Source: Escherichia coli O157:H7
GTDB taxonomy: Bacteria > Pseudomonadota > Gammaproteobacteria > Enterobacterales > Enterobacteriaceae
Assembly: GCF_013167455.1 (NCBI RefSeq)
Contig: NZ_CP038328.1
DNA length: 64,000 bases
Direction: 5' to 3' (one strand)
This document shows, piece after piece, positions 15,001 to 21,000 of this stretch. Position 1 is the first letter of the stretch, and the number at the start of each line of letters is the position of its first letter. A program made the position numbers.

Positions 15001-18000
15001 TTCTCGTCGGTGGATAATACAGAAACGCGCTGCACAGGAGTCTGCGGTTTACGTCGCCATTCAATCCCATGAGCTTCAAGTAATGAGACCAGACGGGCAT
15101 TTTCTGCCCTCAATGCAGCTAATTCATCACTGTCAGATTTATGAACCATATTCGTTACCTGTATCCGATCCACTGAGGCACCACGGCAGAAATTCGGGTC
15201 CCCTACACTGATGACAAAGCGCCCCGCCCTCTTCTGCCTATTAACTCAAGCACCTCCCAACAACTTACAGAAACTTAATTCTAATACCTAATACAGCTGT
15301 AATTCAGTTATGTCGTGGTCGGCCCCGGTTACTTTTTTCGGGAAGCCTGCTACGCCTCAGAATAATACCGTGTTCTTTCTGATCCTGTTTGGCCAGATAG
15401 CTAAGGGCGTAACGTAAGTCGTCTACCGCAGATTTATCACTATAGTGAATTACGTGATCGATACGCACCGGGTATTTGTCTTTAGCCCTGCACAGGTGAA
15501 AATAACCCTCCCCTTCCGTGATCCGCCTCCAGATATCTCCCAGTTGCCTGGATATCCGATAAGATTTGTTGTGACGTTGCCCATCCAGGTAGCCGATAAA
15601 ATGAATATGAAGTCCCTTGTTTGACGTATATTCCATTACCCAGTAATATCCCGCCAGCATCGTTTGGGTTTCACTAAGTAAGCGGTGCATTTCAATACAC
15701 ATACTGTGCCTACAGGAATGACCAAAACTGGGCGTGTCTTTCCTGTAGGCAAAATCAATTCTGAAAGGTAACAGTTTAGAAAAACGTTGAAACAGACCTT
15801 CCATGTGTTCATTCACGTCTTTCAGAATCATGAAGTCCATTTCGTAATTGGGATTAGCATTATACATTTTATAGTCCTTACTTTATAAAAGTTACAGGAA
15901 GGTGGAATTACATAAATACTGAGAGTACAGAAACGCCGTACCGCGGCATTAATAAACGAGGTAACCAGCAGCACAGACAACCTGATAAAACTGTTTCGTA
16001 TTACCTCATTACTCCAAAGAGGTAATATTTCAGAGTACAGTAAGACTCACTTAAACTGAGGACCAGTACGAATTACAATGGTAAAAACACACCTCATAGA
16101 ATTGAGTTTAAGGAAGTACCATTCAATCACTTACAGGAAGTAATCTGACATTCACAAAAGCCAGTATCGGGTAGCCACAGGCAACACCGCTATTAATACT
16201 TCTGTACCATTAAGTAAAAACAGCGACCCAGCTTAAGGCCTCTACAGATATTTAACTTCACCATAAAAATGATGGTATACAGACCATACCCCACACACCA
16301 TAAGAATATTATTTCATACAGGAAAGATTATATTTTTTCATACCTATAAACTGTAACAGAGCCATAACATACTCTAATAGTGTTCCGGTACGTAACCAGT
16401 GTTAAGTGCGTACAAGACAACATAACAGATCACATAACTTCCACTAATAATACTAATTAACCTAAATTATTTATTGAACACGAAAACAATGAAGGCCCCA
16501 CCTCACCTCAGACTAAAGCCGACAATATCCTGAGCAACACTCTATCCAATAGTAAATAGTGGTTACACCAGTTATATTTACTGACTGACCTGTACCAGAG
16601 TTTTCTAATACAACGCTGACATGGTAAAGACATTAGTCTCCTCCGCAAGTAGCAGAGGAGACTATATGTACTCAACGATTAAGTCGTTCAGAGGTCAAAG
16701 TTAGGTGCGACACACAACGTTTTTCCCTCAATAACCGGTACAACTCTGTTTTGTTCATACAGTAAATCCAGTAACCAGTTGATTTTATCCTTTTTCCGGA
16801 AACGGTTCGGACCACGCTGTAAAATGTCATTTTTTTTCATACAGAGGATCCCCTTCTCAATACAATAGCTTTTTATCCAGTTGAAAAGTTCAAGCTCCTC
16901 TGGAATGAGTCGCACAGGTACGGTCAGGGCAGAGTTGTCAAAAGTTAACGGATTAGACAACCGCACATACTCATTACCGTACCATATTGCTAATTCTCTC
17001 GCCATTTCTGCAGTGTAAGGGGAAATCTCCCCCTCTTCACCGCTCGAATGGTAAATAAGTCCTGCCAGTCTTGCCATATACTCTGCATTTTTAGCAGCAT
17101 ATTCCCGGCAATGTCTTAAAGGCCCCAATCCCCCCAGCTTCGATTCCACATCATTGTAATAATCCGTCCAGATTCTGGCAGCCTGAGGAGAAAAGTGAAG
17201 GCAACGTCGTTCACCACTCATCGCCAGACTTTCATCAATAAGCTCATTGATCATTATCCTTGTCCCCTGCGTTGATGTTGGTTGACACATCAAAAACCTT
17301 GCATGATGTCCTGACGTTTTCACAATTTCTTTTTTTCGCGTACAAAAACCTTTGTGGTAAACATCAGGCTGAATCATCACCGATATCGTCAGTCTTGGCT
17401 CCTTCAAATTAATTCCGGGAGATGATTTCCTGTCGATGAAAAGAGAACCTCCATCCCACAAAGTGTTAATAATTCCCAGTTTACTCATGGCCCGGCTGTC
17501 AAAAATTACCCCCCCTTCACTGGATACAAGAGCAAAAGAGCGATTGCTATCGGAGTAATATTTTAACATTCCCTCTATCGTTGTCTCATTAAAAATTGTT
17601 CGACGTATCTGCGGCGGAACAGGAGGTTTATTCAGATGCGTTTCAAGCTCTGATTCTGTTGCCTTGTAATCTTTACCGGCACGAATCTCTTTATGAAATT
17701 TTGATTCCAGCGCTTTTTGTTTTTGCTCCCATATTTCCTTTTCTGTACTGTAATTCTCAACCAGTTTCGCGTATTCATCCGCCAGGGCTTCATCCCTGAG
17801 ATAAAATGCTTTCATAAACACTTTATCCACGGTCGTTTTCCTTTCACCGGAATCAGCCAGAATCAGAGAGTAAAGATTAACAGGCCCATGTAAATTTCCA
17901 GGTCTGCACACGTCAATCTGATTCTGACAGGCAATTGAGATCGCTGTTAATGCGGATGTTGCCACCATAGCCAAAGGTGCCTGTGTATTTTTTTGAGTTT

Positions 18001-21000
18001 CAATTATTGCATTTCTCACCAGCGGTGGTAGTGCATATATCGGATAAGGATTTTCTGGTGCAAGTAAGCACATAAAAGCCTCTCTTTTCATTAATGGGTT
18101 AGTAAAATAGCAGCAAATCCCGCTACAATAGCGAAAATAGCTGCTATTCAGACCTGATGCTCTGAGAAATACAGAGCATTTGTAGATCTGATGTTTAATA
18201 AACCGATAAGGTTAATTCAGTGAAGACTGTATTATTCACCACGAAATATCATTCATATTTCTCATTCTTAATACCTCCGGAAATTATTTCACTAATACCT
18301 TTCCCCCGGTCTTTTCCCTTTCTCCAGAACCATAGTGTAAATATTAACGGCCCCACGTAAATTTCCGGGACTGCATACGTCAACCTGATTCTGACAGGCA
18401 ATTGACATCGCTGTTAATACTGACATTGCAACCAGAGTCAGAGGTACTTGTTTATTGTATTGAGCTTTAATTATTGCCTTCCCTATCATTGATGGTCATG
18501 CATATACTGAATACGACATATCCGGTTTGATGTAAGGCATAAATGCTTCCTTTTTCGTAATACGTTTCGGTTATAGCAGCAATTACCGCTACAATAGCGA
18601 CAATAGCTGCTCTTTCAACAATGAATGCTGGAAATTCTGTTTATCAATTAAACTTCTGGCTAAATTGTTCTTATGCTTCTTTTTCCTCCTGAGGTGATCA
18701 CGTGATGACAAAAACTTATCTGCTCATGGTCATATCTGAAGAAAGCGTATGTCTCACTTCGTCATTAACACCTTTGACTGCTGATCTGGCAGGTACAGTA
18801 TGTAAAGTAAGCCATTCGTCAATAGCTGATGAACGCCAGCCCACAGAACCACTACCAAGACGTACCGGCCTGGGGAAGGTTGCATCGTAGTATTTCGATA
18901 ACGGATTCATTTTTTCGTAAATTGTCGAACGAGATATACCTAACAATTGGCTCAGTTCAGGCATCCGTAAGATGCGTGAAGGAGTCCTGCAGTGTCCGGA
19001 TTGATCTGGCATTTTATCCCCCATAGTGTGGTGAACTGTCGTTACAGTTTGTATTCCCCGGGTAAATTTGTCTGCGTAAAAAAATGGGTTGAGAAAAAAG
19101 ACAATAAATAATTAAAAATCAATATGATAGAAAACGACAGCATTAGTGTTATTTTACTTTTCCCTTATCGCTGTCGATTCTCATTATCATTCATGGCAAA
19201 AAAACAGCAAAAGAGGCCCTGGTAATGACTCCTGTCAGTAGTACATGTGTTTTCGATAAATGAACCAATGGCTTTTCGTGAATTTCCAGGGAGCGTAAAA
19301 AGCAAATCGTTTTCCGGGCAGGTCGTTTGATGTGAGTACGAAGTGTCAGATTGTTGCGCTCAATGCGCCGGGTAAATATCTTGCCGACAAGATGCTTATC
19401 CTGTGGCATTTCTCTGGTATAACTGCTCCGGTTGTCTCTGGTTATCATGCCTGCGGAGAATGGCTTCAGGAATTCCGGCAACTCACGGCATGTTTCATCA
19501 GTGCGAGGACCAAAAGTGTAAGCCAGCACACCGTCAGCTTTGGTCTTATACGCGTACCAGTGCCACTGCTGACGAGCTTTGTTTTCGACAAAACTCCATT
19601 GTTCATCAAGTTCACAGATAAGTGCCACATCGACACTGGCGGCTGGAGATATGGTTACTTTACGTGGTGAGCGTTTTTTAAAGTGAGAATGACGGTGTTG
19701 ATATCCACCTTCAGCGTTCTGGAGCTATCGCGAACCCCGGCTCCGTTATGAACCATTTCAACAATTTGCTCTTTAATGCCTGGTTTTCGGGTTTCGTAGA
19801 TGTAATTCAGTTGAAATACACGTTTGCAGGATTAGCACTGGAAACGCTCATGATCTGAGGTGCTGTGATCATAACGGTACACTTTATAGGAATTACAGCG
19901 GGGAGAATATACTGTAACTGTTGCCATATGGTCTCCAGATACCAATAGAATACAACATTAATCTATCGTCAGAAGGCATCACCGGGGCCTTCTGACATAA
20001 TCTGTTAATACGTGTACTATTACCCTGTTCAGAAAATATTGATTCAAAAATGAAAACCAGTTAACAGAAAAGCAAAATGATATAATGTTAAAATTTTATA
20101 TAGTGCAATAAAAGGAGAATGTTATGTATAATTTTATCACTATAATGTATGATGTCTTTTCATGTTTTGGTGTTCTGGCTAAAAACCAGAATAGCCGTGA
20201 CATCCGAAATATTAAAAATTTTTCCTCACATCAACATTCACTGGGCGACATGTTTGATGAATTAATAAACATTATTGATAAAGAACAAGTATTGAGTAAA
20301 GAACAACGAAAAGTTATATTTAGGAGATATGAAGATCTCTATGTTAAGCTAATGCACTATTCTGTTTTTACAGACAAAACACATCAAATAATAAAACAAA
20401 AATATTTTAATGACATTGTACCAATGATTCTCGCACTCGACATCAGGAACACATATCGCCCGGATAATGAGATGGCATTTTACTATCATATTCATTCTTT
20501 TCTCACTCAGATACCGGATAATGAGGATGATATATATCATGCTGCAAGGACATATCTGCGAAATTACGTTAAGTTATGTTTATCCGGATACACGCCAGCG
20601 AATGCGCATTTCAAAGATATCTTTGATGGCGTATATGAATTCATTCGTAATATTCGCAAAAACAGTACACCAGGAAAAACAAAACTTATCGCAACTATCA
20701 ACACATGCAAAGAAACCTGTAAACATCTGCTTTATTTAAGTAATGAAGACAAGGAAAAAATAATTTCTGACTTAGATAAAGTTCAGGTTGCATGTTATTA
20801 TCTCACTATATTACTGGCTTTCGAAAGACGAACTTCATTAACAAGCACCCTGGCAACTTTATATAAAATGCTGATAAGCGAAAGAGAAGTTTCAGAATAT
20901 GAATGCCAGTTATTATATTTAACCAACCCAATAGATGTAATGAATATACTGAACAAATACATATATTACTTTCCTAATGAGAACTCACCATTTTATACAC

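Follow-up and report, generated by a model that had tools for sequence, protein, structure and literature searches.

A conserved nested palindrome upstream of yfjI in a genomic island of Escherichia coli O157:H7, most likely a protein-binding DNA site

The subject of this analysis is a nested palindrome carried by a genomic island of Escherichia coli O157:H7, within a stretch of 64,000 nucleotides (nt) of contig NZ_CP038328.1 (NCBI RefSeq assembly GCF_013167455.1), hereafter referred to as the window. One copy of the palindrome, inverted repeat 1 (IR1), is located directly upstream of yfjI, a gene of the DUF3987 family, and a second copy, IR2, is located directly downstream of alpA and upstream of a truncated yfjI-like fragment. 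Judging from sequence comparison, the palindrome is most likely a previously undescribed protein-binding DNA site of the replication module of the island, and not a structured RNA. With regard to its role, the explanation that we place first, albeit tentatively, is that of an iteron-like site which a protein of the yfjI-yfjJ replication module would bind and which would serve this module as an operator or origin; it is followed by an RNA hairpin, by an operator for AlpA and a hairpin recognised by an HUH-type nuclease (these two being placed level), and lastly by the absence of any function. No description of the element was found in Rfam, the K-12 annotation or the searchable literature, and a literature search for AlpA or YfjI binding motifs similarly returned nothing.

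On the minus strand, which is the sense strand of the genes relevant here, IR1 reads AATAGCAGC TATTTT CGCTA TTG TAGCG GGATTT GCTGCTATT, and pairing within IR2 is continuous over positions 18575-18611. The outer arms, (A)TAGCAGC/GCTGCTA(T), and the inner arms, CGCTA/TAGCG, are those given in an earlier note on this DNA, the element coordinates of which were off by 4-6 nt (revised coordinates are listed in Table 1). The palindrome encloses a 29-nt core composed of GCTATT, a 3-nt linker, GCTATT, AATAGC, a 2-3-nt linker and AATAGC, i.e., four hexamers of the GCTATT/AATAGC type, two per orientation, at a spacing of 8-9 bp; the O157-type element represents the same core, as GCTATTTTCGCTATTGTAGCGGAAATTGC, with the addition of the outer arms GCAGC/GCTGC. 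The IR1 cluster is the sole site in the window where at least three exact hexamers occur inside 60 nt. A dispersed palindromic repeat of the REP/BIME, ERIC or MITE type was considered and rejected, since just two copies are present in the window, and the 1.5-kb region harboring both IRs was detected at a median of 1 and a maximum of 4 places per E. coli genome, with yfjI present in each instance.

The strongest evidence for selection on this element is its conservation across the enterobacteria. A protein-anchored scan, in which one genome per species was considered, yielded 22 loci (here designated with L numbers) whose YfjI is approximately 40% identical to that of the window, and in 17 of these 22 loci, from about 18 enterobacterial genera, the 29-nt core GCTATTTCYRCYATTAATAGCGGAATAGC is positioned 38-47 nt upstream of the yfjI start. 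A homologous core is also carried by the CP4-57 island of K-12 and by the IncHI plasmid pNDM-CIT. Across a 280-bp alignment of the 17 loci, the core constitutes the most conserved 29-column block (0.94), surpassing the first 50 codons of yfjI, with the upstream flank reaching just ~0.4-0.5. Selection on the element is thereby established, and the suggestion of the earlier note that the palindrome is under selection is upheld, as it represents the most conserved block between alpA and yfjI. In the more divergent locus L030 (YfjI 34% identical), two left and three right hexamers with a 9-bp period are located ~270 nt upstream of the operon, divergent from alpA, indicating that the repeated hexamer is the conserved unit. 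The element was not found at the farther YfjI homologues (L021, L025, L028, L031, L034 and L036-L039); viral contigs contributed 2 loci only, and the phage collection contained no match. Two further observations concern the stretch between alpA and yfjI. At the position of the element, Kosakonia pseudosacchari (L020, ~2390-2430) carries a different palindrome with 12-bp arms, GTATCAGTTGTG...CACAACTGATAC; its YfjI diverges in the C-terminal winged-helix segment, and palindrome and protein may represent an alternative specificity pair. In addition, a strongly T-rich tract of 25-35 nt, situated 20-60 nt upstream of the element, is present in L007, L011-L013, L016-L018, L023, L024 and L035, where it follows the stop codon of one alpA subtype only; it is absent after K-12-type alpA and may represent an alpA 3' end or bent DNA.

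Comparison of the two copies within the window is less decisive. The IR copies are identical at 37 of 41 positions, versus 22 of 36 for the remaining leader (Fisher p=0.003) and 74% for the coding part. However, the best-conserved window of the entire repeat is a coding block at 17951-17910 (containing the ...SIACQNQ... motif; 40 of 42 identical), and a 41-nt window with at least 37 matches appears in 30% of alignment shuffles; the pairwise alignment alone is thus suggestive and does not constitute proof of preferential IR conservation.

Whether selection acts on a DNA site or on a folded transcript was assessed through pair statistics for two sets: 23 distinct elements of all clades in a structure-aware alignment, and 18 sequences of the larger clade, for which the alignment is unambiguous. 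Among the 23 elements, 5 of the 13 pairs never vary, and compensated changes were observed at only four positions, or at 2-4 once both clades and L022 are counted in, chiefly between clades or in one Citrobacter sequence. RNAalifold returned a weak consensus of -2.98 kcal/mol, to which covariation contributes -0.3, for a 23-sequence alignment in which the 3' side of the E. coli clade is misaligned. The left inner hexamer has gathered uncompensated mismatches (A.C, C.A, T.C and T.T), the right half being nearly invariant, and the central loop varies in both sequence and length (TTG, TTA, TTAA, TTTG, TTGA and AAAA). Among the 18 larger-clade sequences, six of the 13 pairs never vary, not one exhibits a both-sided change, and the covariation score equals that of every shuffle, a result which counts against the RNA structure that the earlier note had offered as an option. 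Mismatches compatible with G.U pairing amount to 19 sense versus 11 antisense cells, with no consistent strand preference, and the sense RNA is the more stable in 16 of 26 elements, the antisense RNA in the other 10. Stems that do not vary around a centre that does, one half-site that has degenerated and a number of repeats that changes are together the signature of a protein-recognised DNA repeat and not that of a selected RNA fold.

The alternative that the palindrome functions as an RNA stem-loop in an alpA-yfjI co-transcript is considered rather unlikely. The imperfect hairpin, of 19-20 bp and placed 25-35 nt upstream of the Shine-Dalgarno sequence, would in that case be a site for processing of the RNase III type, would stabilise the mRNA, or would modulate how strongly yfjI is translated relative to alpA. 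The sense-strand folds of IR1 and IR2 are indeed stable (free energies of -24.6 and -19.0 kcal/mol; z scores of -4.4 and -2.8 versus shuffled controls), and in the E. coli clade all seven elements favour the sense RNA by 2.8-5.1 kcal/mol, because their internal "loops" close with G.U pairs. The constrained distance to the start codon, a small number of pairing-preserving double changes (U.G to G.U within a clade; CC/GG to TT/AA in L022) and the probable transcription of the element, for which a separate promoter is not evident, would also be in keeping with such a role, as would the resemblance to the RNase III sites of phage operons, which are imperfect hairpins of ~20 bp with internal mismatches between co-oriented genes. 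Unlike intercistronic RNA hairpins, the element has sequence-invariant stems that lack covariation, carry uncompensated mismatches at four positions and surround a free loop, which is the reverse of what most protein-bound RNA hairpins display. Furthermore, stability is not conserved, ranging from -11.6 to -23.5 kcal/mol across the elements, the L030 element is distant from any start codon, and an Rfam scan of positions 15000-24500 detected no family at the element, the only return being a chance microRNA match (E value of 0.97). An intrinsic terminator or attenuator was likewise rejected, as a U-tract is not conserved: the tail of IR1 is UAUUUUAC, that of IR2 is UAUAACCG, and the other clade has a non-U tail.

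It is, instead, proposed that the palindrome is a sequence-specific protein-binding DNA site which forms the first element of the yfjI-yfjJ module, and that this module would pair a helicase with an HUH-type nuclease. The structural model of YfjI is that of an MCM-like AAA+ ATPase whose C-terminus forms a winged helix, and DUF3987 has been predicted to be a helicase of mobile elements that may recognise origins through its winged-helix domain (PMC5862659). The likeliest binder would be a protein of the module itself, the winged helix of YfjI being the prime candidate, and the site may serve as an auto-regulatory operator before yfjI, as the origin or helicase-loading site of the island once excised, or in both roles. 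In its sequence, the element appears to display the traits of iterons: a repeated motif at roughly helical spacing, adjacent to a replication gene whose product has a predicted DNA-binding domain.

Comparable arrangements are represented by the inverted-repeat operators and iterons of plasmid initiators, among them the RepE operator and ori2 iterons of F and the inverted repeats of pSC101 RepA, in which, as here, a short motif in direct and inverted orientation is found immediately upstream of a gene for a winged-helix initiator, and in which one motif can serve both origin binding and auto-repression. Unlike RepE and RepA, YfjI is an MCM-like AAA+ ATPase, and the candidate site comprises only 4-5 hexamers, with DnaA boxes not found. 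A second comparison is provided by the origins of satellite and island primase-helicases, namely the type I iterons of P4 alpha ori/crr and the ori iterons of SaPI Rep. These likewise belong to integrative elements which possess int, an alpA gene or its counterpart, and a helicase whose winged helix, at the C-terminus, is predicted or known to read short repeats, and the presence here of two repeat sets at a distance recalls P4 ori and crr; the second copy, being located on a decaying fragment and absent from most genera, is nevertheless probably incidental. In contrast to the P4 and SaPI systems, the motif is unrelated, and the element is situated upstream of the helicase gene, not inside or downstream of it. 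A more far-reaching version, to which we assign a low likelihood, would make the palindrome the replication origin (a helicase-loading site, possibly with an HUH nick site) of the two-protein module YfjI plus YfjJ; the module itself is common to CP4-57-type islands of many enterobacteria, among them E. coli K-12, O157 tellurite/urease-type islands and an IncHI plasmid.

Several points weigh against an operator or origin role. The identity of the binder is one that we infer from neighbourhood and fold only, and the effect of binding is likewise inferred. Among close E. coli lineages, IR1 is 90% identical versus 97-99% in the adjoining sequence, and at that depth the preferential conservation which had been suggested does not hold. 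In L021, which encodes a similar YfjI and a YfjJ, the element was not found within 2.5 kb, and the upstream T-rich tract goes with one alpA type and not with the element. The spacing of the hexamers by 8-9 bp, together with a 1-bp difference at the centre between clades, is unusual for a simple dimeric operator, and consensus sites for DnaA and integration host factor (IHF) near the element were found in none of the 11 loci scanned. Finally, neither scanning nor reading of the alignments revealed a conserved sigma-70 promoter at the element or beyond it. Co-transcription of yfjI with alpA is therefore probable; under it a classical promoter-operator role is less obvious, and the RNA hairpin would be made as well.

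The scan for sigma-70 promoters and terminators returned one promoter-like match (9/12) at IR2 and, at IR1 only, a weak match resembling a terminator, and these matches are not conserved in IR1, L004 or the other clade; the flanks of the element are 58-78% AT, and an AT-rich element linked to the module was not found. yfjI is among the K-12 genes for which NAD-capped RNA has been reported, at 12-19% of its transcripts (PMC8040648, PMC10937652), indicating that some transcripts begin with A at or near yfjI. A lead concerning the regulator DecR/CyuR was discarded: yfjI is listed as an earlier-reported YbaO target (PMC6237786), and the motif concerned, GAAwAAATTGTxGxxATTTsyCC, is unrelated to the element.

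Binding by other proteins of the locus must also be weighed. According to one such explanation, which we regard as improbable, AlpA, encoded immediately upstream, would bind the palindrome as an operator and thereby activate or limit the downstream replication genes. Excisionase-type proteins frequently bind repeated short sites, and an AlpA-family gene is present upstream in nearly all element-bearing loci. In CP4-57, AlpA is known to bind DNA and to activate intA (cited in PMC5811629). The element, however, accompanies yfjI below AlpA proteins of at least two clearly distinct subfamilies, that of K-12 and the window and that of L004 and L007, which differ in their helix-turn-helix regions, and L020 pairs a K-12-type AlpA with a different palindrome, both of which argue against AlpA. 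Similarity between islands breaks exactly at the upstream edge of the element, with alpA on the far side of the module boundary, and a similar hexamer cluster near int was not found in the window. The association with AlpA that the earlier note had envisaged, with footprinting in mind, is weakened by the change of AlpA subfamily and by the position of this break.

No better placed, and likewise improbable, is the explanation that the palindrome is a recognition or nick-site hairpin for YfjJ, i.e., a rolling-circle origin or oriT-like site, acting as an extruded cruciform or as single-stranded DNA with YfjI serving as the helicase. YfjJ-like proteins retain the HxH, Y and K residues and possess a fold compatible with HUH nucleases, their homologues are named rolling-circle replication proteins, and wherever a locus with the element extends far enough, a yfjJ gene comes after yfjI. 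Hairpins are common substrates of HUH enzymes, and the juxtaposition of a palindrome with genes for an HUH-motif protein and a helicase resembles the Rep origins of filamentous phages, parvoviruses and rolling-circle plasmids. The right half, TTAATAGCGGA, presumably resembles the nick region of f1 gene II, TTTAATAGTGGA, a likeness which could be due to chance. Unlike such origins, the loop, which many HUH enzymes nick, is the least conserved part of the element, and no conserved nick sequence was found in it; a nick site elsewhere in the conserved right half is possible. The co-occurrence with YfjJ is also imperfect, in that L021 has YfjJ without the element, and L030 has the element with no YfjJ seen in the 1.5 kb available. 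That the element has no function of its own, its likeness between copies resulting from gene conversion or recombination between the repeats and from hitch-hiking with yfjI, is very improbable, for although mosaic fragment variants prove exchange between the copies, and both the shuffling result and the lower conservation of IR1 among close lineages are in its favour, the element is conserved far above the surrounding non-coding DNA, and above the coding start, in single-copy loci of about 18 genera, where gene conversion cannot explain conservation.

The duplicated arrangement in which IR1 and IR2 occur was characterised in its own right. A repeat search identified direct repeats between 17857-18059 and 18324-18526 (77%) and between 18075-18148 and 18541-18614 (74%), and local alignment extended these to two minus-strand units of ~345 bp, 74% identical, in place of the 290 bp previously reported for the duplicated yfjI 5' end. 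In transcript orientation, each unit presents the nested palindrome first, followed by a leader, a Shine-Dalgarno sequence and an ATG, the downstream unit being the live yfjI. As had been noted, the second copy has decayed to an open reading frame (ORF) of 65 amino acids (18292-18489), the lesion being an in-frame TGA at codon 15 (18496-18498); similarity of the upstream unit to live yfjI is lost after about 85 codons, and identities of 0.74/0.86/0.77 at the three codon positions of the two copies point to relaxed constraint on the fragment.

Two adjacent, co-oriented homologous units, one of them disrupted, are consistent with a tandem duplication followed by pseudogenisation. While the co-oriented repeat supports the earlier use of that term, it may be too simple a description, as the fragment is old, always truncated and exchanges segments with the functional copy. 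It was detected in 1,328 of 5,426 complete E. coli genomes, truncated in every one and falling into two lineages that are ~83% alike, and no full-length gene of the second-copy type was found among E. coli genomes or 5.8 billion proteins; a minority of islands (L004) have the single arrangement alpA-IR-yfjI. The fragment family consists of ORFs of 47-94 amino acids (proteins P0121-P0145; L002 3726-3950, L040 1501-1722), which are mosaics of fragment-type and live-gene-type segments and show directly that gene conversion has occurred repeatedly between the copies in tandem. The lesions vary by lineage and include a stop codon, frameshifts and, in L040, heavy decay of the fragment coding block, IR2 being identical there. 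The second copy is, to all appearances, an old and decaying remnant which is occasionally gene-converted by the live copy, and it would have arisen through an old partial duplication or a recombination event that copied the 5' end of the module (IR, leader and ~90 codons).

Between the window and L002, identity changes stepwise at the IR edges, from 99% at the yfjI 5' end to 90% across IR1 and the spacer between the fragment and IR1, and to 83-88% across the fragment and IR2, the two islands being unrelated upstream of IR2; hundreds of E. coli island matches stop at 18611, the outer edge of IR2. The possibility that the junction spacer represents a decayed alpA was not supported, as tblastn revealed no protein-level AlpA remnant, and a second copy of the spacer was not found within the window.

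The island, whose segment 17600-19100 matches E. coli O157:H7-type chromosomes at 100%, adjoins ycdU and encodes a P4-type integrase. Its genes are arranged in the order int, an ORF of 605 amino acids on the plus strand, an IS1 remnant, alpA, the yfjI-like fragment, yfjI, a yfjJ-like gene and a gene for a TOTE primase-helicase, and K-12 CP4-57 retains the identical order int-alpA-yfjI-yfjJ-helicase, the TOTE gene occupying the place of yfjK/abpB in that island. The AT-rich 605-amino-acid ORF (20124-21941), between the IS1 remnant and the integrase gene, has no Pfam match, and other hypothetical ORFs occupy its place in islands L002 and L004. Close to the end of the island, where a spacer separates the integrase gene from ycdU, positions 23449-23553 on the plus strand gave a sub-threshold Rfam match to the small RNA MicC (37.6 bits against a gathering threshold of 90; E value of 0.0098), and ARAGORN detected zero tRNA or tmRNA genes in the whole window, despite the P4-type integrase. 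The YfjI of the window carries a 16-amino-acid in-frame deletion (TGDNYSSQYQDLFEQR) after codon 274 (~17250) relative to the usual form of 477 amino acids, directly following an invariant STQGxR motif and falling in the sole low-confidence loop of the structural model; YfjI of this strain may be impaired as a consequence of this deletion.

Table 1. Coordinates of the palindromes, repeat units and associated genes in the window
Feature	Position	Strand	Basis or remark
IR1, nested palindrome directly upstream of yfjI	18106-18148	.	Conserved core 18113-18141
IR2, second palindrome, immediately 3' of alpA and 5' of the yfjI fragment	18573-18613	.	Core 18579-18607
Repeat unit 1: IR1, leader, Shine-Dalgarno, first ~90 codons of functional yfjI	17804-18148	-	Local alignment
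Repeat unit 2: IR2, leader, Shine-Dalgarno, truncated yfjI-like fragment	18281-18614	-	Local alignment
Pseudo-yfjI N-terminal fragment	18281-18540	-	ATG 18540, own Shine-Dalgarno
Junction spacer between fragment and IR1	18149-18280	-	90% identical, window vs L002
int	22128-23330	-	P4-type integrase
alpA, Phage_AlpA family, upstream of and co-oriented with yfjI	18716-19012	-	Pfam PF05930, E 5e-19; annotation
yfjI (DUF3987), 461 amino acids from NCBI-style start 18073	16688-18073	-	Shine-Dalgarno GAGAGG 18079-18084
yfjJ-like gene, 3' of yfjI, candidate HUH rolling-circle-type nuclease	15304-15867	-	
TOTE-conflict-system protein, 794 amino acids, archaeo-eukaryotic primase and SF2 helicase domains, downstream of yfjJ	12789-15173	-	

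The alpA-yfjI-yfjJ arrangement is among the commonest backbones of P4-integrase-type genomic islands in the Enterobacteriaceae, and roughly one in four complete E. coli genomes contains the yfjI 5' region analysed here, with a relative in K-12 CP4-57. The cis elements of this module have hitherto been undescribed, and YfjI and YfjJ have no assigned function. The element marks the module boundary at which islands exchange alpA/int cassettes, and its sharply defined, conserved 29-bp site offers both a bait for the binding protein and a candidate origin for mini-replicons. Should the element prove to be an origin or an operator, it would reveal whether islands of this kind replicate once excised; if the origin reading were true, "cryptic" islands would self-replicate following AlpA-triggered excision.

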